Shown: positions 513 to 64,000 of the stretch, one piece after another
Numbering within the stretch: position 1 is the first letter of the stretch
Layout: each line of letters starts with the position of its first letter
Source of the DNA: Amphiscolops sp. MND2022
Lineage: Eukaryota
Assembly (NCBI GenBank): GCA_964187785.1
Contig: OZ076409.1
Coordinates: 47,308,001-47,372,000, forward strand
Length of the DNA stretch: 64,000 bases
Reading direction: 5' to 3'
Translations under genes and position numbers: made by a program
The notes under the pieces: model-generated
What the model was told of the DNA's origin: nothing
Seen by the model: the letters and a program-made list of their open reading frames with translations, nothing else
Database searches by the model: none

Positions 513-3500
513 GTTAACACTTTCTCATTGCTCTTCATTTGGTGATACTATTCTAATGGTAATCCAACCATCATGTTGAGACCTATTTGAACTAATAACA
601 AGCCCAAGTCGGCGCCCCGCTCAAAGTTCAAAAAGGAACAAAGTGTTTAAAATATTTGGGGACCAACTATTGAAACTTTTTAATTATTACACAGTGCTAA
701 AAATACCCAAAGGATTACCTCGAAACTAGCTTTTTCTGATCTGAAAACAATAGAAAAACGTATACATAACAAAACATATGCCCGAAAAACTCAGAAGGAG
801 ACAACTTTTTTGAAATCTGCAAAGGGATTCTATTGTCAAAATTCAATCACATTTACTGAGCCAAAAAAACCCAAAGGAACACCCATAAGACTCAAAAACT
901 GTTTTTTAGCCGGCGCTTTTCGTATAAAACGCAAACTATAGCTCTGGCTTTTTTAAAGATCAACGAGATGACAGGTTTTATGAGCTTTATAAGATTTTTG
1001 ATCGGATATAAAGTTTTCAAAGTTCGCATATAGCGTTTTCAAAGTTCGCATATAGCGTTTTCAAAGTTCGGATGTAACGTTTTCAAAGATCGGATATAAC
1101 GATTTCAAAGTTTGGATATAACGTTTTCACAGTTCGGATATAACGTTTTGAAGTTCGGATATAACGTTTTAAAAGTTCGGATACAGCATTTTCAAAGCTC
1201 GGATGTAACGTTTTCAAAGTTCGGATATAAAGTTTTCAATGTTTTGGTATAGCGTTTTCAGAGTTCAGATGTAATTTCGGCTTTGTGAAATTTTTTCGAT
1301 TTTTTTTCGATACACCTGAAGTGACCAAAATAGTTCTACCAAAGTTCCACGGAATTTTAAATTGTACCCGTTTGCCCAGGGAACTGAACCAAAGAAGTTT
1401 TCTTTTTTTCCTGCGTAACATACAATACCGGGCGAGACTAAAGGGTTCCCCTTCCAGTTTTTTCGGCATAGTGCGACTTTTTTTCGACAAAAAAAATTCC
1501 TCGAAGAACCCCTTCAATTTTTTTGGATTTTTGCGGCAGAAAGGATGTGAGAGAGAGCTAACTTAACGTCTCTGTCTAGAAAAGACAAATTGTTGTCTAA
1601 ACTTTATTATATATTTGTAAACAAGAATCGAACTGAAGCATAATCAAAAATAGATCATTTGCCACATGGTCTTAGTACAGCTCAGCAGTACATTCTTGTC
1701 ATCAATTACCATTCATCAGTATTTACCAGAATAGCTAAAAGTGTCCTCCAACATGGCGCTGCGAGAAACAACAGAAGCAGGCGGGAAGCCAGGAGCAGGC
1801 GGAGCATCAGCTTTAGCAGGACTGCCAGCATATTGGGATATGCCAGAATACCCTCCTAAAAAAGAATGGGGAAAATGGTGGAATTTGTTCCTGATGGCAG
1901 TAAATGCAAAATATTCCATTTAGGTTACAGAACTAACAAGAGTCCCGACACAACAACGACCACGCCAAGCAGCATTGATAAACAACCTCAACGAGGAAGC
2001 AGCGGAGAGAAAAACAGTCAGTACACTATTCCTCTCAATAGGAGCAGCAGGACAGAGAAACCCAACTGATAAATTTCCCTACATGGACGTAGCAACAGTA
2101 CCGACAAGAGAAGTCAAAGAGAACTGTGAAAATTGTTTCATTAAACCGAGAAACCGAACTCTGGATAGATATAAACTCTTTGCCAGAAAACAGCAACAAA
2201 ATGAGACACTCAGACAATTCTGGAATGTCCTAACCGGGCTAGCAGCAAGATGCGAATTTGGAGAACAGACAAATAGTCTAATCAAAGATGCGTTCATACA
2301 AAACATGAACAATAAGACAGTACAACAACGATTGTGTACAAAGCCCAAAGAAGAACCAGAAGAAGCGTTCAAATTTGCTGTAGCATTCGAAGAAGGAATC
2401 AGTCAACAGAAAAGCTTCAGTGGTGGAAACGAAACGAAAGCAGAACCAGTATACCAAATCAATGAACGAGTGAAAAACCCATGTACAAGGTGCGGAGCCG
2501 AATTTACGACAAATCATCTACAGAGATGCAAAGCAATAAAGGAACAATGCCGCAGTTGTGGCGGAAATGGTCACTTCGCACGAATGTGAAGAACAGTGAA
2601 ACCGACCAATCAGAGAGGAAATGGCATTTTCAGAGGAAACAACAACACCGCGCAGAGAACGGAATGAGCAGAATCAACCTAATTGATCAAGCAAACAACC
2701 AATCAGAAGACAGCACAGAAGACGATGCTGAGAAATGCAAGTAGAGGGAAACGGAAGACCACCATTTGTATTAAAAGGGAAGTTCAATAATGTGACATTT
2801 ACCACAAGGATCGTCTCAGGTGTCCCAATAACAAAATATACACAAAGTGATTTGAGAACAATAATGAAGAAAAACGTGTTATTTGCAAGACCACTCCCAA
2901 TGGAAGAAGAATATGTAGACTACAACGGACGACCACTCAACCTACTAGGGTTCACAACTATAGACGTGAAGGTAGGAAAGAAAGAGACCAAGAAGGCAAG
3001 AGTAGTGATAACATGGGACGGAAAGAAATCACTGATTGGAAAGGACTGGTTAACAAGTCTAAACTTCAGAGTACCTGACACAAACAACATGAGTGAGTAT
3101 AACAACAGTATAAATAATATAAATAGTAACAACAAGAAAATAGAAAACATAGAAATATCGAAGAACTAAAAAGAATGAAACAAAAGTTTCCAAAAACTTT
3201 TAGCAGACAAGGGAAAATCGTGGGACACACGATCCAAATAGAATTCAAGGAAGGAGCCAAAGCAACACAGCAGAAAGAAAGAAGCGTACCATTACAACTC
3301 CAAAAAGCAGTAGATGAAGAAATAAAGAATCTAATAAATGCGGGACAAAATGAACCAGTAGACAAAATATCAGACGAAATGTTTATACAATCGGTGGTAA
3401 TAACAGTCGAAAAGGATCGAAGCGTCAAAAACGCATTGGATGGCAGATCACTCAACAATGCCATTATGAACGAAAAATAACAAAAAGCCAAGTCTGGAAA

Positions 3501-6500
3501 GCCTTATGGAAAAGATAGCAGAAATCGTAAATGGCAAAGAAGAAGGAGAAGTACGATTCACATCACTGGAAATGCTATATGCATACGGACAAACAACACT
3601 ACATCCGGAAACAGCAAAACGCTCCAACTTCCAAATAATTGGTGGCGAGACCATAGGCACATACGCGTTCAAAACAGGATTATATGGCCTGACAATAATG
3701 CCGCCGGAATTTCAGAAGATTATGGACAAAGTATTACATTAAAAGACAAAAACTTTTGCCTTCATAGATGATATCCTAATTCTAACAAAAGGCAGCAAAG
3801 AGAATCATTTGCAAAAAAGTAGAAGACACAATCAAAGCCCTGGACAATGCAGGAATATGATTAAAACTGGAGAAATGCAACATCGCAAAAACAGAAAAAG
3901 AATGGCTGGGGCTCAAACTATCCGGAGAAGGAATCAAACCCATTGACGAAAAGGTACAAGCAATAACAAAAAAACTGAGACCACAAAATCTGAAGGACTT
4001 GAGATCCTTCATGGGAGCAATCAATCAAATGAACAAATTCATACCCAACCTAGCGAACTTATGCGCACCACTGAGACCACTTTTAAAACACGATGGAGAA
4101 TGGGTATGGAAAAGACAGCATGAACAAGCATTTGGAGAAAAAAAAAGCCATAAAGAAAATGAATGGACTGAAGCATTTTAAACGAAACCTACCAATGAGA
4201 ATATTTTGCGATGCCAGCAAGGAAGGCTTGGGAGCCATTCTACAGCAACAAACAAAAAAAGGATGGGAAACAAGACACTTCGCATCCAGATTTTTGACAA
4301 CGTTTGAACAAAAATATTCAATAAATGAATTAGAACTATTAGCAGTAGTGAGGTCAATCGAAAATTTTAGAAGTTAAGTATATGGAACAGAATTTGAAGT
4401 AATCTCAGACCACAAAGCATTAATGACAGTACTAAGTATAATAGAGCAAATAAAACTTTAAAAATCTAGACTTACCCGTTGGGTAGATAGGTTATTACCA
4501 TTTCAATTCAAAGTAGTACATGCAGCTGGTAGAACAATGGGAATGGCAGACTACCTATCACGCCACCCATCGCCGAACAACAATAACGAACATAAAATTA
4601 AAGCAGAAGAATTATGGAACAACTGGTTCACTGGTAACGAAATAACTAAATGCAAACTTGTTTCAGAAAAGCCATCACAGCAGGACACCACACAACAGCC
4701 AATCAAATCGAAGCTGGCAAGTGAGAACGAAATGCAAGAAAGCGTAAAAGAATCAAATGAAGCGGAAAGCACAAATGTAAATAAACGAACACTCAAAGAA
4801 GTAGTGGCAACAATTAGACCGGCAGTATCAAGTGACAGCGTGCAAGAAACAAACGACAACGACAAAATGAGCGAACACATAATTGAATTTGCAAATCAAC
4901 CACCACTAAAAGCACCAATATGCTATTCTATCAATCAAATAGAAGTCATACAAATTCTGGGAAATCACACATTTGCCTCGCAATACGAAGCTGATGAATT
5001 CCTACCAAAAAAACATAAAATTGATAAAAAAGCCAGATACTACCAAAATCAGCTGCTTACCAACCCCATGGAGAGAAAGTTTCAAAAATTTGAGCCTGGA
5101 TAACAACGACTTCTTATATATGGATGAGCGTCTAGTCATCCCGAAAAACCTTCGCACAATTATTATCCGCTTTCTTCATTACGGTCACACAGGGAGAGAC
5201 AGCATGATGGCAACTGTTTCAAGTGTCTGGGGTCAAGCTACACAGGGAAGTCGTATCCCTCGCACGAACATGCAAACAATGCCAACAACCGGAAAGAATA
5301 TCAAACCTTTACTTAGACAAAATCAAGTATGAAAATTACCAAAATGCACTGAAGTTAACCAAGAAATAGCAATAGATTTTGTAGGACCATTTCAAAATGC
5401 AAGAAAAGCCAAAAAGTACTTATTAGTATCAAAAGACCATTTCTCAGAATGGCCAGAAGCAAAATTTTTACCAAAACCAACAACTGAAAAAGTAATAGAA
5501 TTCTTAAAAAGTTACAAAGCAAAACATGGAATTCCAAAAACAATACGAACCGATCCCGCAACAAAACTTAGAACTAAACGGTTCAAAAAATTCTGCAATA
5601 AACGACCATTTCAACATATAGAATGTCCAATAAGAGATCACAGAGGTAACGGAAAGATTGAAAGACTAATCAGGACATTCAACGAAAGGTTGAGAACAAA
5701 CAAGAAAATAATAGTGAGCAATGAGAATTCAGGCATATCAGAGATATTATTCGCTCTGCGGATGTATCCATCAGCCAATGGGAAATCGGCATACGAGAAA
5801 AACACAGGCCGAGAACCAAATACTATAAAGAAACTGATAACAGAACCCTTTCGGTGTATTTCAGAACCCTCAACAGTGAAGCTCTCAGACACGGATTTAT
5901 TTCGAATCTGGACAGGACTCAACAATCCTGGTAAGGGAGAGGACACGGGGCACAAAACTGGAAGGTGCATTCAAGAAAAGAAAAGGAACACTACTGAAGC
6001 AAACAAACCACACCATAACGTTCCTCCCAGCAGGCAGCAACAAAAGTACAATAATCTCCAAAAGAGATGTGGGAAAACTTTTGAAGAAAACAACAAACCA
6101 TGCTGTTCACGCTAAGCAACACGACTAGAAGAAAACCGAAAATACAGTTACCAAACACTACCTGGCGAATTTAACAACGACGACAATCAAGCCAGCGAAC
6201 AAAACAAACAAGACAGCGACGATAGTACAAGTTTGGAAAAGTGGCAAAAGAACAAATAATGCCAAATTTGACAAAAGGACCAGAGATCCCCACCATGCCA
6301 GAACAAACGAAGAAACCAGAACTCGTCATGAAAGCACTAAGGAAAAAGGTGAAAAAGATGAAGAAAAACAAAAAAGCCAAACAACAATTAGAAGTCGAGG
6401 AAATATATCCAGAAACAGATGAAGAAGTTGAGACTAACTGGACAAAAGAAGAAAAGATAAAGAAGAATGCGAAGAACCAAACGAAACGGACTTGTCAAGA

Positions 6501-9500
6501 AATACGGATTTACCAAGAAGAGGAGGACGCAGTCGTCAACGAACAGACCTTTACGGTCAAAACGTAAGGGTCACCCGAATCAGCAAAACAACGGGGGAAG
6601 AAGAAAGTGACCCAGAACACTGAAAACTCAAATGAAACAAAACTTTAACTAGTACCAACTAGCCTTATCTACATTCATTAAACTCAAGTTCATTTTGCTA
6701 CCTTGTTGCTATATTTATACAATAACGCAACAAAATTTTGTTTTGTCATACGTTAACCTAGTTAAGGCAACCCTTCTGTTAAAGTAAAAAAACCCACATC
6801 CAACCATGCAGTTTATTATTATTCAAGGGGATGTGAGAGAGAGCTAAGTTAACCTCTCTGTCTAGAAAAGACTAATTGTTGTCTACACTTTATTATATAT
6901 TTGTAAACAAGAATCGAACTAAAGCATATTCAAAAATAGATTGTTTGCCACATGGTCTTAGTACAGTTCAGCAATACATTCTTGTCATCAATTACCATTC
7001 ATCAGTATTTACCAGAATAGCTAGTAGTGTCCTCCAACAAAGGATTTTGAAAAATACCAAAGCGTCCCCCTGGCGCGACATTCCGGTCCAACTTTTGGGA
7101 TTTTGGGATGCTGTAGAAGAGAATACTTTGACACTTTGAAGTCATTTAGCTATTTTTGAGCCTTAGATATGGTGCCGACTTGGGCAGTTTCCGGCTTGTT
7201 TTTCTAACTGGAACACGTATTAAGAAAACTCTCATAAGTCCCACAGGACCAAAAAATAACCGAAGATGTCACCCTTAAGGCTTCGAAAACGAATTTCTTT
7301 AATGGACAACCTAAACAAAAACGAAAATCAAGTGGGAAACATTTTAGAATCTTTTTTTGCTTTCAATTATTTTCTCTTCGATAAGTCGCATACTGCCAAA
7401 AAATCTAAAGAGCCTTCAATGCTCGCAAAACGCCGTTTCTGCTAAAAATTGAAGGAAGGCAACTCGTTTGTTTAAAAAAATCTAGAAAACTGGCCTTGTT
7501 CCAAAAAAATTCTTTGGTCTTTCCTCTAACTTTGCATTAAAAAAACTTCGAAAAAAAACTCACGGTGCCGAAAAACGCAAAAGAGGAGACCCTTTGGTCT
7601 TTTTTATCATCCAGTTGGTTGCAGAAACTTGAAACAATCAAATACCCTTTAGCGACATCAAAAAATTTTGGAATAAAAGTCTTAAAATTCCGAAAAAAAC
7701 AGGAAAACAAACCTTCTGAGTTATCTAGTAACGGCAAAAGCTCTAAATACTATGGTAGCCAAAATTCAATTGCTTTCTATTAAGTTGCTATGCAAGTTCT
7801 ATGCAAGTTGCTTTCTATTAAATTTGGAAGGCATGCAGAAATTCTGTAAAAAGTGGACCTTCCAGTGTGAGGTCTGTGGTCTGCAGAAAAATAGTCTAGT
7901 CATTGTAATATTTTAGTGTAGTATTGTATTTTTTGCTTCACAAAGAGGCCCCGACTAGAAAACTTCTGACATGTTGATTGGGTCACTAATATAAAACGAC
8001 TATACTTCGAGAAAGGCGAGCTACTCACGTGTATAAGCATAGATAAACCACAAAAAATTCGATACAGCTACCCTCTAAGCACATGAACATCTAAGGTTAA
8101 GCCACCTTTTGAAAATTTCACGCGTTTTCTTCATAGGTTTTCGAATTGCATGGATACACGAACCCTTTGCACGCAGATGTGTTTCAAGACATCCGTAAAA
8201 TCGAAGCAGAAACAGCCAAGATGGCCGCCAACTTGTTTCATGGTGGATCCGACAGCAGTGGACTTGTTAGTATCCCTAGAAGGTATGCGGATAACTCATC
8301 GAAAACAACTCGCCGAATGCAACTCGTCGAAAATAAACGGCGAAAAACTGGTCGAAAAACAAACTCGTCGAAATATAACTGAATGCTACCTGGTCGAATA
8401 ATCAGAGATTACATCAGTGCCAGTTATGGATTAATTTTTGCTAATTGATGCATGAAATTTTCAGATTCTAGCATATAAAAGCTTTTCTAGTTATAAAATT
8501 GCTTCAAACATTTCACTTTTATAGTTAAAATCAAAAAAGCAATCACAAAACGTAACAAACTGTTCCCGACTTGGGTTGAAAAGCTATTAAAAAGTAATCT
8601 TGATGATTATATTTCGTTTAGAAACAAAGTTTGTTCCATGATTCGTGAAGCTAAGAAACAAGATAACTTCAGAAAACTTGGCATAAATCCCACTGCACGA
8701 GCAAAATATAGGTCTTCAAAAACTCAGAAAAACAATGATCAGCAACCTAATGAACTTTCTGATTTAGAAAAATTGAATGAATTTTTTGAAACTATTGGGT
8801 CAACATTGTCATCTAGGCTGCCACACACAGCGTATCTTTCGGGCTCCTTTAATTGTGAAAAGCTTTGTTTAAAGAACCCACTCGGGAGTTTGAAGTTGCA
8901 AGTCTCATCAAAACATTGAAGAACAAGAAAAAGTGTGGTTTGGATGGAATCAGTATTGAAATTTTGAAATGCTGCTCACCGTTTATTGATTGTCATCTCG
9001 CACGTGCATAGATGACAGTGTTTTCCAAAAACATTTTCGAAATTCCTCAAGTTGTACCATTGTTTAATAAAGGGAAGAAAAAAGATCTTGCAAATTATCG
9101 TACAATTAGCCTGCTAAGATTTTTGAGTAAAGTGTTTGAGAAAGTCTTACAAAATCGAATGTAACAATTTACTGAGAAAACCAACTTTATTTGTCCCATG
9201 CAATATGAATTCGGAAACAACATGTCTTGTGTTGATGCTATCGGTGCAATAACAGAATTCATTCGTTCTGAAATTGATAAGAAAACACAAGGCCAAGCTT
9301 GCTTTATTGATTTGCAAGAAGCTTTTGATACGTTGGAAAATGATATTTTATGGAAAAAGTTATTAGATTATTGCTTTAGTGGGAACAGTTTTGAAACTTT
9401 GAGAGAATATATTTCAGATCGTAGGCAGTACATCAGTCATAACAGTGTTTGCACGGAAAGGCTCGAAATTGTGTCTGGTGTTCCAAAGGCTCCGTCTTGG

Positions 9501-28654: not shown

Positions 28655-30337
28655 ATGCCTTCAACCAGGAGACAAAAGGTGAAAACTAAAAGGTCAAGGG
28701 AATTGGGTATGTTATCTAATTACAGTAACATGGATTTAATGTTAGGAGACGGAAATTCAAACTCTATAGAAAGAGAATTAGACAGTCTCATAAATGGCCC
28801 AGAGGGGCCACAGGATATTCAGACTTTCCCAAATATGGAAACTTCATCTCGAGAGAATGAGATTAGAGATATCAGTAATTGAAATGAACCTGTTAGAGAA
28901 GGCAGACTAATAGAGTCAAATAATATGCTGTCTGGGGAGATGAATGCTAGAATGTCTCGGGAAATGGAGACTATGATGGACTTTATGCAAACTCAGATCA
29001 GTAGGGCTATAAACTCTACTATTAGTGAGAGAATAACACCTGAGATACAAAACATGATGGAAAATTCATCTTTGGTATTGAACCCCGTTTGTTTTTAAAT
29101 GAGGATGATAATGGAAACGTGTGGAAAAATACAAAACTTACAAAGAAGGACTCTAGGTCCGCTGGTGACTTGAGAGATCATACGGACACTACTCCTTACA
29201 TAGTGACAGGAGCCAACGAACTTCAACGTCCGATTCCTGAATTCCTCACAGGACGAATTCATTCTCAGCCAGACCCCCAGAGGCAAGAATCCGCACATGA
29301 TACAACCATGGATACAACTCTACCAGAAGCAGAGCCCGTCATGGCTGAACAACCACAAGACCCTATCAATCGACTGGCAGACGTTCTGGGAAATCTCCAA
29401 AACAAACCGCAATCGATGACAATTCGACCAGTCACGACGAACCCCATGACTTTTGACAGCAAAACTAAGAAGTTTGAACTATTTGAAGATTTATTTCAAA
29501 CCATGATAAAGATGCAGCCCGCTATCACAGAGCAAATGAAAATAAATCATCTTCATTCACTACTCAGAAAAAGAGCCCTGCAAACTTTTCGTAATATAAA
29601 CTCTAAAAACCGTCAAACACTAGAGGACGTATTGGTAATATTCCGCAGAAAATACGTCAAACCCGAATCACAAGCCACAGCAAAGCATAAAGGGCATATA
29701 CTTATTTTCGATCCTAACACGATGAAATTACCCGATTTTCTCAAAGAACTCAATCAGGGCGCCGCGAAAGCCTTCGGAGAAAATGCCAAGAGCATTATCG
29801 ATAGCCTCTTATACGCTAAATTACCTCCAAAACTCAAAAGATCAGTAAATATGGCCCGACTGGAAAACGACACATATGGGGTTATTGTGGGGCACCTAGA
29901 AGGAGAACTCGAAATAAACGCCTCAGAAGAATCCGACGATTTGCCCATTGCCACAAGTCATCGTCGGACAGGGCGCGAAATTTACTATCCAATGGCATTG
30001 ACACCAACAAGAACAACCAATGCTCATACTGCAAAGCTGAGGACCATTTCTGGAAAAAACTGTCCAAAACATAAAAAGAACAAAGAAATGGAAGCTATAA
30101 ACGGCAACAAAGATTCAACGTCCAAACTATCCAGAATGTCCCACTTGCAGCAAAACGAATCATCCGGCAGAAAAATGCTGGCGAGGTGCAGGAGCGCACC
30201 TTCGTCTGAAAAGGTCTAGACAGAACACCGACGAAGCCGAAGCTTCATGGGACGAGTGAACCTCCACTAAAATTGACAAAACTACAACGTCTTCATCAAG
30301 CCAAGCGACTTCCGAAAAGCCTGAGTCAAAAAACTAA
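28655..30337 (+). pseudogene. gag of element 2, initiating inside the LTR
   Basis: ATG (MPSTRRQK) at 28655. The frame, broken by a stop and indels, passes through the LTR end and PBS (Y-I-V-T-G) into TFD.K..KFELFEDLF..MIKM.P...E..KIN..HSLLR..ALQ, which also aligns with the intact gag at 61167-62606. Confidence 0.85.
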
Positions 30338-42965: not shown

Positions 42966-45964
42966 AATTTTCAAACTGCTAGTAAAAATTTTGGAACTTT
43001 TACATATGTTGTTTATAATAATTTGCATGCAAATATAGTGAATCATATAATATGTTCAATATTTGAGAGCAAGTTCTACTGACAGGCAGAAAGAAAACGA
43101 GTTCAAATGTCTGCCTGATCAGTATAGCTAGCATGGCCGGCCGTGGCATAATAGCCAATCAGGGCTCTTCATTCATTTACCGCTGCTTTAATTTATAGTG
43201 CACTACAAATACTCAATTGGAATGGACGCACAAGGCAATATGGCTTTGCTGGTCCTAATATGTGAATTGGTTGATGCTGTATTATTTCACACCATTTGGT
43301 TGCGAAATTATGCCTTACACGATAGTCAGACATGCAAGTCGTGTATGAATGTACATGTAGTGTTGCGATATAAATGAAATGTTCATGGTTGCTATGATAC
43401 GTTTATTAATAATCAAAGCGGACTAAAGTAATCATTTGATCCTTTGTGTTTTGAAGCTGTACGCAATGCAATCAGTAAAGGACAAACAGGGCATTCTCTT
43501 ACCGGTCTCATCCAATCAAACCAAATTTGGTGATGTAGTGATACAAATTTAAGCCCAACATGGTCAACAGGCCAAGTGTGGTTTACATGAATTGAATTAC
43601 ATGAAATCACAAACATGTAAAACAGTACTATTTTAACTGTGCTGTATTATACGCCCTACGCGGCTACGCGTCAGTGCCCCCCCCACTGTGCGTAGCACGT
43701 TGCCCTTTGATCTTGCCGCTCCGCTAGTCGAAGTGACGTCATGTATTCCTTCAACCAGGAGACAAAAGGTGAAAGCTAGAAAGTCAGGGGAATTGGATAT
43801 GTTATCTTATTACGGTAACATGGATTCAATGTTAGGAGACGGAAATTCAAACTCTATAGAAAGAGAATTAGACATTTTCATTAATGGCACAGAGGGGCTA
43901 CAAGATCTTCAGACTTTCCCAAATATGGAAACTTCATCTCAAGAGAATGAGATTAGAGATATCAGTAATCGAAATGAGCCTGTTAGAGAAGGCAGACTAA
44001 TAAAGGTAATTAATATGCTGTCTGGGGAGATGAATGCTAGAATGTCTCGGGAAGTGAGACTATGATGGACATTATGCAAACTCAGATCAGTAGGGCTATA
44101 AACTCTGCTATTTGTGAGAGAATATTACCTCAGATACAAAACATGATGGAAAAGTCACCTTTGGCCCAACAAGGCATTGAACCCTGTTTGTCTTTAAATG
44201 AAGATGGTATTGGAAACGTGTGGAAAAATACAAAACATACAAAGAAGGACTCTAGGTTCGCTTGTGACCTGAGAGATCATACGGACACTACCCCTCACAT
44301 TTGCTTTGTTTGAATATTTTTAGACATTTTTGGTAATATAAAGTTTTCGAGAAGCTTGAGAAGATAACTGAGTTTTCAGCAAGCTTTTAGAAGAAAGTTT
44401 CCTCAGAATGACCCCAAATTTGCGAAAAACACTGAAATTTTGTAATTCTTCTAATGAGTTTTCTGTATGAATTTTGAGCAAATTCCTTGATCCAAATGAT
44501 TCAAAAACTCTGTAGTGAATAAATTTGGTATCTAGTAGGCGTTTTTGAAGAGGTAAATACAATTTTTTGTCGGAATTGGCCTTAGAACACCACAAAACTC
44601 AAAAAAACGTTTTTTGACACAATAACTCCAAATTTTGTTCGAATAACGAAATATTTCTGTAGATTAGAGCATCCTTTGACCTGAACCCTGAACGTTGGAA
44701 CAAGACGGAATTCGAAATGCAGTTTGTGGTTGAAAGTGGGATAGAGTTCCTCACATTTAACAACGAAGGCGCCAAAAATTCAGAATTCTCCTAATTTGTA
44801 ACATAGACCCAGTTTTAACGCTTCCTAAAAATTTCTTTCAATCAAAAAGCCCAAAGCTTCAAAACGTGTAGCTACCGGTAGTGTTTTGGAAAGATATCGA
44901 GCAATTATTCTAGCGGAACGTCCCGAAAATGTTACTTGAAAGCGTAAAATTTATTCGAACTTTTCTGTCAAACATACAATTTTCAAAAAACTCCATGCAA
45001 AATCACTAGGTATGGAGTTCGTTTTTCAAAAAACTGATTCTTGCAGTTCCCCAGGTAGGTAGAAAGCTAAAGAAAGATCCAAAAATCGAGAATGTTTCGA
45101 TTAGATTTTTTAGATGAGACATCTGTAGTTTCATCATGTGAAGGACACTAGCTCCAATCTTTTACCCTTTTGCCGAAATTAACCCCAAGAAAGACGCGCA
45201 AACTAAAAAGAGACTCGCAAACTAATTTTTCTCCAACAGGAAAAACAAAGAATCCATTTTTTGAATTTTTTCGGTAATGTCCCATAGTGCTGCAAAACGT
45301 TTCAGCTCGCAAAACTTCTCAGGTCAAAATCATTTTTGAAAGTGAGGGTCACCTTTCGACCAACGAAGGTTTCGGAAAGACGTACAGATTCGAAAAAAAA
45401 ATTCGGAAAGTCGTACAGACTGGAAAAATTACTTTTCTCAAGCAAGCCGCAATCAGTTAAAAAGCAAGGGAGCATCCTTCGACTAAATGAAAGTTTCGAA
45501 AAGACGCACAGAGCCGAAAAAACTGAAATGAGGTTTTTCCACAATCAATAAGAAAACTCATCACTTGCACAGGATCAAAATCAAACAAAGAGATCAACCT
45601 CCAGGCTCGGCAAACATATTTCCTCTACTGAAAACCACAAAAACTTGACATTTAAAACAAATTCGGTAAATGATCTCGGGAAAGTTTTTAAAAATTTTTC
45701 CTAACTCGGTAAATCGCACAGGACCCAAAAAACGAACATTGGCCAGCTTTGCTTGCAAAACGCTGTAGTTTTTGCTGAGAAACGAGGGATGGAGTTTAGG
45801 TCTGCAAAATAGTGTAAAAAAAGTCGTATAGTCCCGAAGAAGTTTTAAAGGTGGAAACTTGGGTCTTCTCCTACTTTCCCATTAAATTTTTTTGTTTTCA
45901 ATGGCTATTGTTGAGCCTCAAATTTATGTTGTTGTGAACTGTTAAGAGTGGATTGAATGATATC

Positions 45965-47460
45965 TGTAAGGAACAAAGTGCGTATCTTTTCTGAGATCAC
46001 AAGTGGACCTTGAGTCTTTCTTTGTAAATTCCATGTTTTTGGTTTTCCAAGCATTAGCAATATTATACCCAGTTAAAGCCGTACACGGCTCTGGGCCATT
46101 GCGACTTAAAGCCAAACTTCCCATTGTATTTTGTATTTCAAGAATGATTCTATCAATAATAGCGGACCTTTTTGCCCTATTGATCTGCGACGGCCTTAGA
46201 TCCATCAACGAATCCGTTTCTCGAGAAAGTCTTTCATTCATTTCATCAAACAATATGTTAATAGATTCCGAAAGTCCTTCTGGTCTGATTGACCCGTTCC
46301 TATTTTCAATATCTCTAATCTCGTTCTCGGGAGATGAATTTTTTCTATTAGGCAAGGACTGTAGGTCTTGTTGTCCCTCAGTGCAGGTTTTTAGGCTATC
46401 CAGTTCTCTCTCTATAGAATTCGTATTACCTTCATCTAACATGACGTCCATGTTACCGTATTGGGACAATATGTCCCGTTCTTGATTTTCTACATTTTGC
46501 CTTTTGCTTTCTCGTGGAAAGCATGAATACTTGTACAGGAAGAAATTTTCAAATTGTTCCTGTAATCTTAATGTTAAATCCGATTGTACAATGAACACTT
46601 GAACAAAAGCAACTTGTATCGTAGTTTATTTCAATAACTTGTGTCGTCTAATGCCCGGGTTGGGTAGTTATACCTACACGAGCATGACACTCAAGTCTAC
46701 AAGGATCATGTTACTAAAAACAGCACTGAACTAAGAATAGTAACATTTTATCATTCTAATTATAGGAAATGCTGTCATAAATGTTTGCAGGGGAGGCAAG
46801 GTCAAAGGCTTGCGCGGTTGAGGAGCAAGGGGGAGTGACGCATGTCCAAATACGGTCTTGCAACAAATATATCAAATCACGGTTTACACGTTAACACTAC
46901 ATGCATGTTGAATTGGTTAGGTCGCTTTGTCTACCTGGCCGTATTTAGCCTTCCGTAAAATCCATACAAGGGAAGGGTTATTCATAGCAAAATTAGCTCT
47001 TTAGTATTTCATCAATGGAAAGGTCTTATACAAGTAGAGCGCCTTCTAATGAATGATTAACATCAGCTAAATAGAATTGACAAGTAAGGCCAGCCAGGCC
47101 GTGTGACCTTACTCGTCCTTTCCGCGTAAGTATTAGTACAGCTATATAATTAACAAAGAACCAACTAATATCAACTGCGCTGTGATTGGCCAGCTAGCCG
47201 GCGACGGTCTCGTTGAACAGGCAAAACTTTGAACACGTTTCATTTCTGCCTGTCAGTATAGCTTGCTGTCAATTGTTATTTTACATGGTTGAAACACTTA
47301 TGACAATATGCATTGAAAACAATACTATTAAGTTTCAAAATATTAACAGGGATTTGAGAGTTCCAGTCTTTTAAAGGTAGTGTTCCGGGCAATGCGATTT
47401 GACTTGTGTGGTCTATGATATATATGTTGCCATCGCAGGCGGCAGCCTGCGACAATATCA
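45965..47460 (-). mobile_element. 3' end / LTR fragment of a relative of element 2
   Basis: Minus strand ends ...CCTTACA with no PBS after it. Encodes a homolog of the LTR-borne Gag N-terminus (YGNMDVML.EGN.NSIERELD...TKKDSRS.CDLR) and shares blocks with 42870-43720. Confidence 0.85.
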
Positions 47461-55690: not shown

Positions 55691-58600
55691 ACATTTCGTT
55701 TTTGTTCCTCTCGTAAGCCTACCCTATCGAAAAACACCATCTTGGTGTATATGGAAACATCATGTAGTCAGAGCTTTGGGGCAAAGGTTTAAAAAGTTCA
55801 TTTTCAGGTCTAAACGATTAATTCCACATCTTCTTGGGCACGAGGATGTTGCGTAATAAAATAAAAGCTTGTTTGCGATTTTTATTTCGGCAAACTGTAA
55901 AAACGTTGAAATAATTTTCTTTTCAAGCTTCACAAAAAAATCTTCCAAGCTATCTCGAAACTTTGCTCACCAATACTAGGTGAACCGAAAAAATACGAAC
56001 GTACAATGTTTTTCACCTCTTCAAAAGCGTAATAGTTGTAAACAAGACACTGAAAAACGTTCACTTTCTCTGTCAATCATCCTCTCATTACGCAATTTAG
56101 TTTTCAACAATGAATGATCCGAACCTTCAGAAAAAGTCTAGACAAATTTACCAGTCATTTCATTCACACTTCTGATGTGTGACAAATTATTAGGTTGGTA
56201 GAAAAGACAAGCTGAATCACAATGTTCAGAGTTGTTTTGAAACATTTGTTTACAAATATTTGGACTTTTGAGAGCTTCAAAATTTTTTATGCGTTCCGTT
56301 TTTTTGGTTCACCTAGTATTTGTAAACAATGTTAAATTTTTGTCGATGCTGCTATTATTCCTAATATGCTCTAATCATTTGCGGACAAAAAAAGAAACGA
56401 CGTACAAAACATTCTTGACTATTCTTTTTGAAACTAACTGTATTAGCTGTAGTGAGAACTACAATTGCTTTACTGTGGAAAAAAAAAACAGAGAAACTTC
56501 ATTTGTACTACCTTATGAAAACACCATTCTCCCAAGATATCAATCTATGAAACACTCCTTGTTACGACTGGTGTTCGGGTCGTTTTGTGTTGAATTTATC
56601 CTAACAAGTTTAGTAGGGGTGTAAAAACTTCTAGTGTCATTTTCTATTTCTTCCTCGACATTTTCCCTAACGTTTCCCCTTGTTTCAGGTTTTAAGAGTT
56701 TCAACATTTCTCTCTGGGAGTCGATGAGGAGATTCTTAATTTCAGACGTTATTTCTTCCTTCAACGAGGCTCTCAAGCTTTCTAAGAAACTATTTTCCAC
56801 CCTTGAAGATTTTGGTTCTGACGGGCCTGCGTCGTCAACATCCTGGTTTGGAAGACAAGGGTTCCTTATTTCTACCGGTGAAATAAAACCTTCACTTACA
56901 TTCTCATTGCTCTCCTGTTGGATGTTTCTTCTCTTTTGACTTCTTGTTGTAGACATGTTGAAGAAAAGATTTATCTTGAAGAATTGATTTTTCTTTTGAA
57001 GAAGTTTTCTAACAAAGTTAGGCAAAGATTTGGTGAAATTGAAAATTCAAACTGAATTACACAATTACAAAAGACTGAGTCCCTGAGTTAGCGAAAATCA
57101 TCCTATATATACCCTCCTGGCATCATTTGATCACGATTAAAACCCTAATTTCCTTCGAACAATTAGTCACTTCCTGTATTTTCGATGAAAAATCATTTTG
57201 TTCCCAATTTTACGTCGACATTTCGTCAATTTTTGAGACACGGCAATTCCAATCTAGCATTAGTCATCAACCATGATCATATCATTTCAGCTCGGCGTCC
57301 TTTTGCTTTCCTCCCAAGCAGGAAGTAGATATTACTTCAGTCTGTCAAACCGGAAATATTTCCCTGTTTTACTGACTTGGTTCGCGGGAAAAATGACGCT
57401 GAGATGACGCTGACGTGAACAACTAATACTCAATTTGGAAATCAACTCGATGAATTGTGATGACTAATTTCAAATTAAGGTTATTTCAACGATGCTAAGA
57501 AAAGGCTTTGAAATAATTTGGGACGCAATCTTTTGGTTAAAATTAAATTTATAGTCCTCAACAAACTAGATGCAAATGTATGCCCCAACTCTGGCTTGTC
57601 GCGGCGAGTGCGACAAGGTTACAAATTAAATTTAACAGAACAAAACTTTAAACATCAACTCTAAACTGCATTGTAAAATGAGCTTGCATTGGCATTAACA
57701 ATCTCATTTGGAGGAATAACATTTAGTTTTAATAACATTAACAGGTACAAAACCTTTCGAGTATAAATATAAGGCAACGCAATGGCATCGTCTTGTAGAA
57801 TGGATTGATGAATTTATGGTACAAAAGTTTATCCAACAACGGCTTCATGACACAGATCACAGCAAATATATAAAAATACCTCAGGTAGTAAAATATCGAC
57901 ATTCGTTTAGTGTTAGGAAATAAACCATGACTTTTGTTCTATTAGAAGCGGAAAAATTCTCCTTTTAAGCTAGTCCCTAAGTGATTCTGATCTAGTCATA
58001 ATTTACCCGACAAAATGCAGGTGTATCCTTGTATTTTTCCCATTTTAACCTAAAATGAGCGCATCGTTTACATTAAATCCGTTACAATCATCGCGCATCA
58101 TGTTATTTTGGATGGATGAAAACAGTTATTTTGATGGATTTGCGACAACATAACGACAAGTTTCTTAGCTAACTTGGCAGCTTGCCAAGTTTGACGAGTA
58201 GCTGACGCATATTCTAGAATGAATTTCTGACTAGCTACCAAGTAAGACGAAGTGCTGACGTCACAATTTGGAATGAAATTCTGGTTAGCTGCCTAGTTAG
58301 TGACGTCATAGCGACGAGTAATTTGGATTAATTCTAGTTAGTTAACTAGTCAACGACGTGTCAATGACGTCATTACAAATATTGAAAATTGCATGTACCA
58401 CCAACATTTGTTTGTTCAGCAACGCGGTACCGTCCTATTCTGCATTGATTGCTGTTCAGAGTGCAATTAAGCTGCCTTTCTTAGAAAGGCGTAAATAATT
58501 CAGCGTGCCGTCTCAAAGTATTTCCTATTTTAGTTCTTATTGATGTTCTTTTCTGATAGACTGTTTTGGATATTTTCCATCTAGATCGGATTCTGGCTTT

Positions 58601-58793: not shown

Positions 58794-59507
58794 TTACCAT
58801 CTCGGGAATCTGAGGTTGCAGCCATGTCCTCGTCCTATTTTCATCCGACGACAGCCACACGCCAGACCGGGAGCGGGCTGTGACAGGGCCACTCCTCTGG
58901 GGAAAACAGCTCCCCCAGGTTGTCTCATCATGAAGTTCGTTGTGAGGGGACCTGGATAGTGAACTGCTGTCGAGTGGGTGAAGCTTGGGTCTTCTAAGTC
59001 ATTCAGCGGGCTTATGGGCCGGAAACTGATCTTCTTTGGCGTTCCAGGAGGTGTGCTGAAGTATGAGCCTGAGTCCTCTTGGTGTATTTTTTCGATATAC
59101 TCTGCTACTCTGCTGCTTGTTATCGATTGGGCTGACTCTGTTGATTCTTCCACTACAAATACATCGGAACTCATGCTCTCATCGGGACTTTCTGGGCTGT
59201 CTGGCAGGTCTTCTTTCCGAACTCTTATAGAGTCCTGTTGCGGGGCGTGCGTCTCTGATTCAATTGATTCCAGGCTGGAACTAAGCCTTAGACTTTTGCA
59301 GCTTGACTCAAGGGAATCCGTTGAGATGTCGAAGCATTCCTCTTCGTCCGCTGTGGCTTCATTCGACGAGTGTGACATCTGTAGTATTATTCTATAGTTG
59401 GGGACAATTTTGCGAGGAATGGGCGTCGAAGCGCGTTCCAAAATTCCCTCCTCGTCTTCGCTTGAAGATATATCGATGAGTTCATAGACGTTCTTGAGTC
59501 CATTCAT
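58794..59507 (-). CDS. Accessory ORF of element 3 (237 aa, Ser/acidic, SIM-like LIDISSSEDEE)
   Basis: Uninterrupted ATG-to-stop ORF in the element's sense orientation, downstream of the pol remnant. No signal peptide or TM segment visible. Confidence 0.65.
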   Translation of the reverse strand: MNGLKNVYELIDISSSEDEEGILERASTPIPRKIVPNYRIILQMSHSSNEATADEEECFDISTDSLESSCKSLRLSSSLESIESETHAPQQDSIRVRKEDLPDSPESPDESMSSDVFVVEESTESAQSITSSRVAEYIEKIHQEDSGSYFSTPPGTPKKISFRPISPLNDLEDPSFTHSTAVHYPGPLTTNFMMRQPGGAVFPRGVALSQPAPGLACGCRRMKIGRGHGCNLRFPRW

Positions 59508-60579
59508 TTTTGTAGCTATTGTTAAGTCTGTAGTCTTCGGTGTTGCTGTATTCTACTTGTTGACTGTTCCACAATGAACTTAGGATTATTTTGGGATTAA
59601 GGCGAATTTCAGGATAAATCCCTCTATTCTGATTGGTTAAACAATCGTTTTAATCCTTTTTAATCCTTTCCGATCAACAAGTGTTGACGTTTTGATAACG
59701 TCGTGTTTTTATTGGCTGCAAATTAAATTAATCCGCTTTAGCCAAACTTGTCAACGTTATGCTGACGTCATTTTCGCTAGCTTAGCTAACTTTTGTTTTG
59801 TCACCGTTATGATGACGTCATTTTAGATTATAGGATTAATAATCCAGTAACCTTTTTGTCGACGTTATGCCGACGTCGATTTCGCTGATTTTCCAATCAA
59901 CTTTTTGGTGCTGACGTTATGCCAGCGTCAATTTCGTTGGTGGTTTGCCAACTTTAAGTTTGTCACCGTTATGATGACGTCAATTTGGCTGTTGTTTTCA
60001 TCCTCGTTCTGTTTTCAGATTCACTGCTGTTTGTGATGGACGGTGATCAAGTTTCGTCCCGCCATGATCCCGGAGCCCAGAGTGGCAATGAGACAAACTT
60101 CGTCTTTTCGGAGACTGATGTGCGTCACAGCGACGCTGATGAGGTTCGGCGAGTAGTTACTGGTGAGTTCATCATTTCTCAATCCATTAAGCTTTTATGG
60201 ATAGTATGTTGATTACAGTTAGGCCTTTTCTGCATCACACTTCCATAGCTTAGATTTTCTGGCGCGCCGATATTCGAAATGATGTTTTAGTGCCACCTCC
60301 TGTACAGGAAGCCTGTTTGCCAGCTTCTGGTTCTACTGCTGATACCTTGGCTGTTGATCAGTCTGCTGATGATGTTCTCTTAGTTGACCCGCCAGGGGGT
60401 CAAGTTGCTGCCGAAGACACTGAAACCGAAGGGCTCGACGTTCCCTTGTCGCAGCTGTTGCCTGACCTTAAGTCCTTTCCTGCTGGGGGTGTTCCTTCTG
60501 AGGCTGCGACTGTAGCTGTTCCATCTCACGGAGGTGAGATTGCTTGTCCCCCCAGAGAAAAGAAGGTAGTTGGAGGGGA

Positions 60580-61170
60580 TGGAATGTCTGCAGTGGCTAT
60601 TGGCTGCTCTAGTTGTGCGTTTGCGCATTCAATTTTGAAAGGAGGTTGGGGGTATTCTTTTATGACACAGCTATCGGTATTCATCTTGATGGCATTATAG
60701 TCTGACCATGACATGGCATTGATGAACGCACCTGAGTCGACAAGTCCGTCCATAGTGATTTCTCCAAATTCAAGCGGTAGATAGAGCATTCTTCGCTTTT
60801 TCTTGAGGACTATATTCGAGTGGAGAGGTAAGTACGTCTCTCCGTCCTTTTCAGTGACATACTCCTTAATAGAGTTAAGAGATGCGGGGAAATCTTCCGG
60901 GAAGATAGGTACTTGGGTGGAGCCGTGAGTATCTTCCTTTGTCAGTGGTGACGATGGTTGGTCTTCATGGTCCTCATCTGGTGTTTGCTCTTTTTCGGTT
61001 TGTATGAGGGGTCTTCGTATGGAGGCGAGTGCCTGACGTCTCAGCCAGTCCTCTGTTGGAGTTCCATCGCATTCTATTGTTGTATCTGTTGTGTACGTCG
61101 TAGGGGGATCGTTCGTTAAGTACGCCCTCGCGTCTACTGTTTCCCCGAAGCGCAGGCGCGGCGTAATTAG
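60580..61170 (-). pseudogene. Truncated pol (aspartic protease only) of element 3
   Basis: LYLPLEFG...GLVDSGAFIN...FKIECAN..LEQPIATADI, then an abrupt switch to low-complexity sequence. Confidence 0.85.
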
Positions 61171-62606
61171 TTTTTTGAGTCAGTGACAGTGTTAGCTGTT
61201 GCTTGTTGGACGGGAACGTCCTTTTTTGGTTCTGAATTGTTGTGACGCTTAGGTCGTGGATCGTTGGCAGAGTTGGCTCCGTTCCAACAATCTTCCGTTT
61301 TGTGGGGTTTGCCGCATGTTTCGCATTTGAACGGTTTGCCTGCACTCGTGTTAGTTTGACCATTGTTTTTTCTGGTTTGCATCCATTTATCTCTCTTCAT
61401 TTTCCTGCATTCTGCCTTATAGTGTCCAAATTTGTTGCAGTGGAAGCAATATCCTTTTTTGACATTTTGCGTCGTGCTGTCGACTTGTTTGGACTCAGTT
61501 TTTGCTGGGGCTGGTTCTACCTTGTTTAGTGGTACTAAGGTTACCTCATCCGGTGCTCCAAGGCCGTTAAGTCTCATTTCGCGTTCTAGGTGGAGTACTA
61601 TATCATTATAGGGTTTATCCTCGAGGTATGCCTTGTTTAGTATTTTCTTGACGTGGTCTGGCATCTTTGCATAGATCGCCTTATCAATAAATTGTTGGGC
61701 TTCAGAGCCAAAGGCTTCCTTGGCAGTTTTTTGAAGTATGTCCAGAAATTCGTGGAGTTTCTGGCTCGAGGGATCGAATTTGAGCGCATCCCATTCGCAT
61801 CTTGCCTTGGCCATAGACAAATAGTCTCCAAAACGTCGCTTGAAAATTGTCATTATTTCGTCAAGGGAATCCTTTTTCGTGTCTTCTATGTTGCAAAACG
61901 CCTGGAGGGCGTCTCCTCGTAGCAGTGAATGGAAATAATTGATTTTTTGTATCTCCGTGAGATGTGGATACATTTTGATGTTGTTACGGAAAAGGTCCTC
62001 AAATAATTCAAATTTTTCCGATTTCCCGTCGAACGTTGGGAGAGATGCCGTTAATGCTTTTGGCATAGGCAGCGTAGTGCTGTCGCCTTTTTCCGACGCA
62101 AACAAAGTTCTCGCTACAATTGGACGTTCTTTTGACGCCGGTTGACTTTGAGACCGGGCTTTCGTTCTTTTTGGCTGGTTAGTGGAGTCGGTTAGAACTC
62201 CTGTCACCATGTTACGACTGGTGTTCGGGTCGTTTTGTGTTGAATTTATCCTAACAAGTTTAGTAGGGGTGTAAAAACTTCTAGTGTCATTTTCTATTTC
62301 TTCCTCGACATTTTCCCTAACGTTTCCCCTTGTTTCAGGTTTTAAGAGTTTCAACATTTCTCTCTGGGAGTCGATGAGGAGATTCTTAATTTCAGACGTT
62401 ATTTCTTCCTTCAACGAGGCTCTCAAGCTTTCTAAGAAACTATTTTCCACCCTTGAAGATTTTGGTTCTGACGGGCCTGCGTCGTCAACATCCTGGTTTG
62501 GAAGACAAGGGTTCCTTATTTCTACCGGTGAAATAAAACCTTCACTTACATTCTCATTGCTCTCCTGTTGGATGTTTCTTCTCTTTTGACTTCTTGTTGT
62601 AGACAT
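61167..62606 (-). CDS. gag: Intact Gag polyprotein of element 3 (479 aa from the MSTTRSQK ATG)
   Basis: Open frame with a capsid-like region (LPTFDGKSEKFELFEDLF...) and two CCHC knuckles, CFHCNKFGHYKAEC and CETCGKPHKTEDC. Confidence 0.93.
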   Translation of the reverse strand: MSTTRSQKRRNIQQESNENVSEGFISPVEIRNPCLPNQDVDDAGPSEPKSSRVENSFLESLRASLKEEITSEIKNLLIDSQREMLKLLKPETRGNVRENVEEEIENDTRSFYTPTKLVRINSTQNDPNTSRNMVTGVLTDSTNQPKRTKARSQSQPASKERPIVARTLFASEKGDSTTLPMPKALTASLPTFDGKSEKFELFEDLFRNNIKMYPHLTEIQKINYFHSLLRGDALQAFCNIEDTKKDSLDEIMTIFKRRFGDYLSMAKARCEWDALKFDPSSQKLHEFLDILQKTAKEAFGSEAQQFIDKAIYAKMPDHVKKILNKAYLEDKPYNDIVLHLEREMRLNGLGAPDEVTLVPLNKVEPAPAKTESKQVDSTTQNVKKGYCFHCNKFGHYKAECRKMKRDKWMQTRKNNGQTNTSAGKPFKCETCGKPHKTEDCWNGANSANDPRPKRHNNSEPKKDVPVQQATANTVTDSKN

Positions 62607-64000
62607 GTTGAAGAAAAGATTTATCTTGAAGAATTGATTTTTCTTTTGAAGAAGTTTTCTAACAAAGTTAGGCAAAGATTTGGTGAAATTGAAAATTCAA
62701 ACTGAATTACACAATTACAAAAGACTGAGTCCCTGAGTTAGCGAAAATCATTCTATATATACCCTCCTGGCATCATTTGATAACGATTAAAACCCTAATT
62801 TCCTTCGAACAATTAGTCACTTCCTGTATTTTCGATGAAAAATCATTTTGTTCCCAATTTTACGTCGACATTTCGTCAATTTTTGAGACACGGCAATTCC
62901 AATCTAGCATTAGTCATCAACCATGATCATATCATTTCAGCTCGGCGTCCTTTTGCTTTCCTCCCAAGCAGGAAGTAGATATTACTTCAGTCTGTCAAAC
63001 CGGAAATATTTCCCTGTTTTACTGACTTGGTTCGCGGGAAAAATGACGCTGAGATGACGCTGACGTGAACAACTAATACTCAATTTGGAAATCAACTCGA
63101 TGAATTGTGATGACTAATTTCAAATTAAGGTTATTTGAACGATGCTAAGAAAAGGCTTTGAAATAATTTGGGACGCAATCTTTTGGTTAAAATTAAATTT
63201 ATAGTCCTCAACAAACTAGATGCAAATGTATGCCCCAACTCTGGCTTGTCGCGGCGAGTGCGACAAGGTTACAAATTAAATTTAACAGAACAAAACTTTA
63301 AACATCAACTCTAAACTGCATTGTAAAATGAGCTTGCATTGGCATTAACAATCTCATTTGGAGGAATAACATTTAGTTTTAATAACATTAACAGGTACAA
63401 AACCTTTCGAGTATAAATATAAGGCAACGCAATGGCATCGTCTTGTAGAATGGATTGATGAATTTATGGTACAAAAGTTTATCCAACAACGGCTTCATGA
63501 CACAGATCACAGCAAATATATAAAAATACCTCAGGTAGTAAAATATCGACATTCGTTTAGTGTTAGGAAATAAACCATGACTTTTGTTCTATTAGAAGCG
63601 GAAAAATTCTCCTTTTAAGCTAGTCCCTAAGTGATTCTGATCTAGTCATAATTTACCCGACAAAATGCAGGTGTATCCTTGTATTTTTCCCATTTTAACC
63701 TAAAATGAGCGCATCGTTTACATTAAATCCGTTACAATCATCGCGCATCATGTTATTTTGGATGGATGAAAACAGTTATTTTGATGGATTTGCGACAACA
63801 TAACGACAAGTTTCTTAGCTAACTTGGCAGCTTGCCAAGTTTGACGAGTAGCTGACGCATATTCTAGAATGAATTTCTGACTAGCTACCAAGTAAGACGA
63901 AGTGCTGACGTCACAATTTGGAATGAAATTCTGGTTAGCTGCCTAGTTAGTGACGTCATAGCGACGAGTAATTTGGATTAATTCTAGTTAGTTAACTAGT

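Follow-up and report, generated by a model that had tools for sequence, protein, structure and literature searches.

Long terminal repeats (LTRs) are usually regarded as non-coding control regions. The retroelement near the end of the window analysed here (the whole stretch of 64 kb) raises the question whether an LTR can also carry the 5' end of gag as a conserved protein-coding segment. A preliminary description of this DNA had proposed such a coding-LTR design from a gag frame that opens within the repeat. Here the proposal is weighed against the structure of the locus, related copies in the same window and homologous proteins. The features concerned are collected in Table 1.

Table 1. Features of the element and of the other copies used for comparison; positions are those of the window.
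Feature	Position	Strand	Remarks
5' LTR	62210..64000	-	at least 1791 nt, outer end beyond the window; direct repeat with 56560-58350
TATA-like box	62753..62761	-	155 nt upstream of gag ATG; motif scan, putative function
Initiator-like TCAGT	62724..62728	-	putative; motif and spacing
LTR-encoded Gag N-terminus, codons 1-132	62211..62606	-	ORF and conservation in homologues
Basic N-terminal tip, residues 1-10	62577..62606	-	60-70% identical in 56%-identity subfamilies
Amphipathic helix, residues 53-88, probable coiled coil	62343..62450	-	AlphaFold2
LTR-terminal CA (62211-62210) overlapping junction ATG (62210-62208, M133)	62208..62211	-	
Primer-binding site, zero spacer	62197..62209	-	reads MVTGV; near-identical motif at 29201 (sister family)
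Internal gag: disordered linker, capsid-like core (~residues 183-346), two zinc knuckles	61167..62210	-	
Slippery heptamer at gag stop	61170..61176	-	
pol remnant with protease motif	60586..61179	-	broken near 60585; tblastn to gag-pol relative P0204
Extra sense ORF, 237 aa, acidic, Ser-rich	58794..59507	-	no Pfam family
3' LTR	56560..58350	-	inner-edge candidates 58377, 58885, 58908
Second copy in 3' LTR: promoter-like motifs, ATG, 132 codons	56540..56956	-	138 aa
E2, decayed sister-family element, same layout	28655..29212	+	44% Gag core identity; ATG 28655; LTR end CA 29199-29200; PBS from 29201
LTR fragment E2b of sister family	43745..44299	+	ends ACA, no PBS
LTR copy C of sister family	45965..46569	-	ends ACA, no PBS; used for dN/dS
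E3, unrelated control element, 208-nt LTRs, 5-nt target duplication	1546..7039	+	Gag frame from junction ATG 1753

The gag Frame and the LTR Boundary

Gag is encoded by a single ATG-initiated open reading frame (ORF) of 479 amino acids (62606-61167, minus strand), the start codon of which sits 397 nt inside the 5' LTR. Self-BLAST delimits a direct repeat (62207-64000 / 56557-58350, 99.8% identity) that reaches past the end of the window. Compared base by base, the shared block has C62211-A62210 as its last bases, corresponding to C56561-A56560 in the 3' copy, where AGGAG follows and the DNA continues into unrelated sequence. The two LTR copies differ by three substitutions, all located 5' of the ORF, and the ORF part is identical. 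Codon 132 (Asn) ends at 62211, so that 132 codons and the A of ATG133 fall inside the LTR, the final A of which is the A of M133 (MVTG). With zero spacer after the LTR end, TGGTGACAGGAGT follows from 62209, and the junction translates as S-R-N-M-V-T-G. Both the opening of the frame at 62606 within the duplicated block and its passage through the terminal CA and the primer-binding site (PBS), as claimed in the preliminary description, are thus borne out at the level of single bases. The PBS may resemble the 3' end of a tRNA-Leu; no tRNA genes were found in the 64-kb window.

In the LTR-coded block the two alternative frames are interrupted by 11 and 13 stops, and each of the three frames has 9 stops over the 396 nt preceding the gag ATG. 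The point at which the AT skew rises from approximately 0 to +0.32 is the gag ATG rather than the end of the LTR. Among 679 background ATGs at positions 7101-28500 of the window, just 4 begin a frame of 132 codons free of stops. The open frame in the LTR is more than chance. In the 3' LTR the corresponding ORF runs for 6 codons beyond codon 132 before it meets a stop in host DNA, giving an intact frame of 138 codons. None of the three candidates for the inner edge of this LTR combines a clear polypurine tract with a clear inverted repeat.

The TATA-like box and the initiator-like motif suggest that transcription most likely starts near 62726, which would leave an ATG-free leader of ~120 nt before ATG 62606; the nearest ATG upstream of the gag start, at 62751, lies 5' of TCAGT. 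In the sister-family LTRs E2 and C, TATA-like boxes are located 137-148 nt before the matching ATG; in the decayed E2, TCAGT is absent and three ATGs intervene between the TATA-like run and the start. Predicted folding of the leader RNA was no better than that of shuffles (z +1.21). Downstream of the TATA box the LTR contains no canonical poly(A) hexamer, only AATAAG at 62520. Between 59740 and 59990, repeated units of ~70-100 nt are rich in TGACGTCA (CRE-like) motifs, and similar motifs occur in the outer LTR.

Affiliation of the Element

The Gag protein matches Pfam DUF1759 (E 1.7e-9), its zinc knuckles match nucleocapsids, and its neighbours in the Atlas are Retrotrans_gag and Ty3_capsid. 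The predicted model of the core is helical, with the PNMA2 and Arc capsids as its best Foldseek matches, although these are weak (E 8.5e-3; none at 0.001). A -1 frameshift at the slippery heptamer, leading into the pol frame with the protease motif, is probable. The pol remnant by itself gave no Pfam match, and no reverse transcriptase (RT), RNase H or integrase is left in this copy. With gag intact and pol broken after the protease, this copy is young but non-autonomous. The extra ORF of 237 amino acids follows the pol remnant and precedes the 3' LTR, a position usual for env or accessory genes.

The order of the pol domains in its relatives indicates that the element is of the Ty3/gypsy type (Metaviridae): in P0204 Gag is followed by protease and RT, and in E2 an RT-like region is followed by RNase H and then integrase. 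Further features that it shares with the Metaviridae are terminal direct repeats that close with CA and have a TGG PBS behind them, and a Gag with a capsid fold and CCHC knuckle. RT matches in the Atlas were to generic RT clusters only. The Ty1/copia superfamily, which needs integrase before RT, was rejected on the order of RNase H before integrase in E2 and of protease, then RT, in P0204. Typical pol domains of BEL-type elements are Pfam Peptidase_A17 and related families. Despite the DUF1759 match, BEL/Pao was rejected as well, with pol pieces matching RVT_1, RT_RNaseH, Integrase_H2C2 and Integrase_p58_C and no BEL-type family. The 3' internal region of the element shows no similarity to that of E2 by tblastx.

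Two antisense open frames were noted, one past pol in the present element (60254-60619, plus strand, 122 codons) and one behind E2 (37237-38124, minus strand, 296 codons), in regions that show no mutual similarity by tblastx. Elsewhere, the window holds a tandem array with a period of ~22 nt (1002-1274), an ORF of 319 amino acids in a GC-richer stretch (50881-51909, plus strand; no Pfam match) and one of 228 amino acids (16571-17257, minus strand; no Pfam match above cut-off).

Conservation of the Frame and of the LTR End

Gag homologues numbered 2863 in total. The basic start and the junction are both kept in 88 of the 119 best non-self homologues and in 73 of the 105 listed cluster members. 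A profile search returned 1817 representatives, of which 150 were listed and 144 were new; in these 144, 18 junction motifs were located upstream of the core, and the residue preceding MVTG is N, D or H at 17 of the 18 junctions. Gene calls that begin at MVTG itself occur 5, 1 and 10 times, respectively, in the three sets (16 together), and may represent either copies in decay or elements with a genuinely short start. Among the distant families, seven full-length Gags with a core identity of 46-57%, chosen by eye from 28 and spread over several branches of a 25-row core tree, carry 4-7 K/R within residues 1-15, and their junction falls at residue 115-224. These data point to a gag-in-LTR layout that is family-wide, the LTR end being placed at the DNA level in this family and that of E2 and through the protein motif in the other distant families.

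In the distant Gags P0367, P0379 and P0406 the junction unit is tandemly repeated in frame, which suggests a tandem duplication of the integrase attachment site (att) plus PBS, and in P0126 two in-frame copies of the N-terminal 127 residues, separated by a short spacer, precede MVTG, as tandem LTRs would produce. Some gene calls of homologues (523 aa) carry extensions of 44 residues that match the position of the leader; as the leader here has no in-frame ATG, they were rejected as the Gag start. No related loci were confirmed among 23 pattern matches in viral contigs and 371 matches in metagenome contigs.

Where the LTR ends in other copies can be read from short proteins. A search with the 132 LTR-coded residues retrieved 760 of these, the best 120 of which were examined. 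RN is present at the junction in 112, of which 17 continue with MVTG and 95 with unrelated tails; the eight left out comprise seven with an altered RN and one stopping before the junction. The first tail residue is compatible with a codon starting with A in 95 of the 95 LTR-type ORFs, vs 43 of 94 at the next position, and the tails, 1-83 residues long, are mutually unrelated. This is the pattern that results when LTRs share the same final A and are then followed by differing host DNA, and it indicates that the LTR end is fixed at the junction across the family. Consequently, we regard it as extremely unlikely that the repeat is a local duplication instead of an LTR, with gag not truly starting in an LTR: the outer end, the target duplication and the polypurine tract are not fixed at this locus and E2 contains an internal duplication of its own, but the repeat ends in CA immediately before the TGG PBS, and the same end point recurs in these 95 other loci and in two LTR copies of the sister family. 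The duplication in E2 is a tandem one of 1.6 kb (29539-31183 and 31179-32823, 99.6% identical).

The same short proteins bear on another reading, in which selection acts on the LTR ORF chiefly for a short product in its own right, made from 3' or solo LTRs and comparable to an LTR-borne accessory gene, with the fusion to Gag being secondary. That 760 short proteins match the 132 codons, and that the 3' LTR of the present element has an intact ORF of 138 codons behind the same motifs, fits such a product. Still, the LTR encodes no stop for it, the tails after RN have neither sequence nor length in common, and the frame joins gag unbroken in every intact lineage; we judge this reading very improbable.

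Selection on the LTR-Coded Frame

Amino acid identity is unevenly distributed over the LTR-coded part. In subfamilies with ~56% overall identity, residues 1-10 mostly reach the values given in Table 1 (in P0077, the gene call of which has a different start, the tip is 40% identical), the helix is 35-47% identical, and the linkers 7-32%, with residues 11-54 at only 7-25%. Under a neutral model the probability that the frame stays stop-free to ~30% amino acid identity is P ~0.001-0.003, a result that has to be softened, as protein databases hold open frames only and apparent frame conservation is inflated accordingly. For this family the evidence for selection is at the protein level; dN/dS values were taken from the sister family, copies of which occur in the window, and this DNA-based test avoids most of the database bias.

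E2, which has the same PBS as the present element, and LTR copy C differ by 51, 52 and 83 mismatches at the three codon positions (p 0.005), with a dN/dS of 0.28 in the Gag frame (bootstrap CI 0.16-0.46, 178 codons) vs 0.87 and 1.06 in the other two frames. The comparison of C with E2b gave 0.27 and is not independent of that of C with E2. The close pair E2 and E2b has 23 mismatches (10/9/4 by position), a dN/dS of 1.7 and p 0.26, i.e., no signal, as is expected if decay after insertion dominates. The substitution pattern indicates that the LTR-coded Gag frame is under purifying selection in the sister family.

The Protein Coded by the LTR

The preliminary description had noted a coiled-coil-like stretch in the LTR-coded part, and a helix is indeed predicted there: AlphaFold2 gives one confident helix of 36 residues (residues 53-88; pLDDT 94-95 over residues 61-80), the rest of the N-terminus being disordered. 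Positions 58, 61, 65, 69, 73, 76, 77, 84, 87 and 88 are hydrophobic in 98-100% of 42 aligned rows, with a spacing of 3-4. The predicted helix is probably a coiled coil and, by analogy with the prediction for the Gag of Cer1 (PMC10309623), most likely takes the place of a matrix domain and would help Gag to oligomerise. Prediction of a homotrimer for residues 46-95 scored 0.22 and 0.20 vs a mark of 0.32, with the alignment unused. The helices of the distant families align poorly with those of this family (scores 19-30 vs 71-82 within the family). All Pfam matches of the 132 residues were under the cut-off and were rejected, including that to the DNTTIP1 dimer domain (E 0.002).

The Junction ATG

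The role of the ATG at the junction deserves separate consideration, since CA followed by TGG without a spacer always spells ATG. The unrelated element E3, decayed and gypsy-like, has its Gag start codon composed of the last A of the LTR and the TG of the PBS, and a stop precedes this codon by only a few codons. That such a layout exists in the same window lends some credit to the reading that Gag starts only at MVTG in the present element too, the upstream frame being untranslated and free of stops by chance or because of its A-rich composition; stops are infrequent in A-rich DNA, and the four background ATGs mentioned above yield a comparable frame. Against this stand the frame-specific dN/dS of the sister family, the periodic conservation of hydrophobic residues and the retention of the start motif over deep divergence, and we therefore consider a start at MVTG only to be most improbable. 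A translated upstream frame is, thus, preferred, and E3 suggests, without proving it, that the long form arose by upstream growth of an E3-like junction-ATG frame into the LTR.

The preliminary description also envisaged two Gag isoforms, a long one starting with MSTT and a short one with MVTG, a proposal for which we found no support. Regulated production of both, from 62606 and from MVTG, through an internal promoter, splicing or internal ribosome entry, would agree with the conservation of M133 (at least 90%), its good context (A at -3, G at +4), the use of such an ATG by E3 and the 16 gene calls starting at MVTG. However, att and PBS by themselves suffice to fix M133. It is also forced into frame: stops close both other frames at the junction in this element, so that any read-through puts the junction ATG in the gag frame. 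Six ATGs occur between 62606 and the junction ATG, so that a ribosome making short Gag by scanning must bypass ATG 62606 and six more, and the leader lacks a folding signal. Two isoforms seem, therefore, unlikely.

The accompanying idea that att and PBS are under coding constraint applies mostly in reverse. The DNA, ACA|TGG, is kept while the amino acid varies among N, D and H, which indicates that att and PBS mostly dictate the amino acids more than they are dictated by them.

Comparison with Known Systems

In Ty1 from Saccharomyces cerevisiae, gag begins in the 5' LTR (PMC3522557), and its RNA has a 5' UTR of 53 nt and a PBS at nt 95-104, inside GAG (PMC5454406), so that ~14 codons precede the PBS. 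The present element resembles Ty1 in that the 5' LTR contains the AUG of gag and the coding frame spans both the LTR end and the PBS. It differs in the number of codons before the PBS (132, approximately ten times more, and 114-223 in relatives), in having a whole predicted helix domain in the LTR, and in belonging to a different superfamily with a different primer site. The principle that Gag may start in the LTR is, therefore, already known from Ty1; what is new is the scale and the presence of a whole domain in every solo LTR.

Within Ty3/gypsy, the description of Cer1 from Caenorhabditis elegans (PMC10309623) reports a Gag in which a predicted long N-terminal coiled coil takes the place of matrix and is followed by a capsid-like domain and CCHC fingers; Cer1 further has an additional ORF upstream of the 3' LTR, LTRs of 492 nt, 5' UTR positions 957 and 1175, and a tRNA-Pro PBS. 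Judged by that description, the layouts are alike in the N-terminal coiled coil and the extra ORF; the LTR length and UTR positions place the coiled coil of Cer1 outside its LTR. Elements of the E3 type, starting Gag at CA|TGG, share the zero-spacer PBS and the junction ATG in frame with gag, but have a short LTR, a stop few codons upstream and no LTR-coded domain. No description of a Ty3/gypsy element with a long LTR that codes for part of Gag was found in the literature searched, which was largely exclusive of older and subscription papers, Repbase and GyDB, and the available text of PMC4402516, PMC11117352, PMC4202319, PMC3095310, PMC554778 and PMC9911081 contains no precedent.

Model and Implications

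Taken together, we consider it highly probable that the element represents a Ty3/gypsy-type clade in which the 5' end of gag is carried by a long LTR and is translated as part of one long Gag. The coding-LTR design originally suggested is supported by the family-wide frame, the fixed LTR end and the purifying selection in the sister family. In this model the ribosome would use the first AUG, at 62606, of an RNA begun at the putative initiator, and would translate the remainder of the LTR, its terminal CA and the PBS before reaching capsid and nucleocapsid. The LTR part would provide, besides a basic tip, an amphipathic helix of 36 residues that replaces the matrix domain; the helix would likely act as a coiled coil in Gag oligomerisation, and the tip may bind RNA or membrane or direct localisation. 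The MVTG ATG would be a by-product of CA plus TGG; it may also be the ancestral start, the frame having since grown upstream, to judge from E3.

A more speculative and rather doubtful extension is that 3' and solo LTRs act as mini-genes, with a promoter, an ATG, the basic tip and the coiled coil and without capsid, that make truncated Gag N-termini. These would enter assembling particles via the helix and restrain the family, as a brake scaled to copy number, or the cassettes, each reading into flanking DNA, could seed chimeric host genes. Ty1 has a truncated-Gag restriction factor, and an LTR-coded brake, if real, would mirror it but be encoded by the LTR itself.

Genome compaction is not the cause of the arrangement, since the LTRs are long (at least 1.8 kb here). 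For annotation it means that a search for gag only after the PBS loses over a quarter of the protein. If the proposed transcription start is right, the first DNA made in reverse transcription, ~520 nt, would be protein-coding. The conservation data indicate that, across a large and diverse clade, ~400 nt of LTR codes for a selected protein domain. As the LTR is copied in reverse transcription, each 3' or solo LTR carries the promoter and a truncated N-terminal ORF aimed into host DNA.
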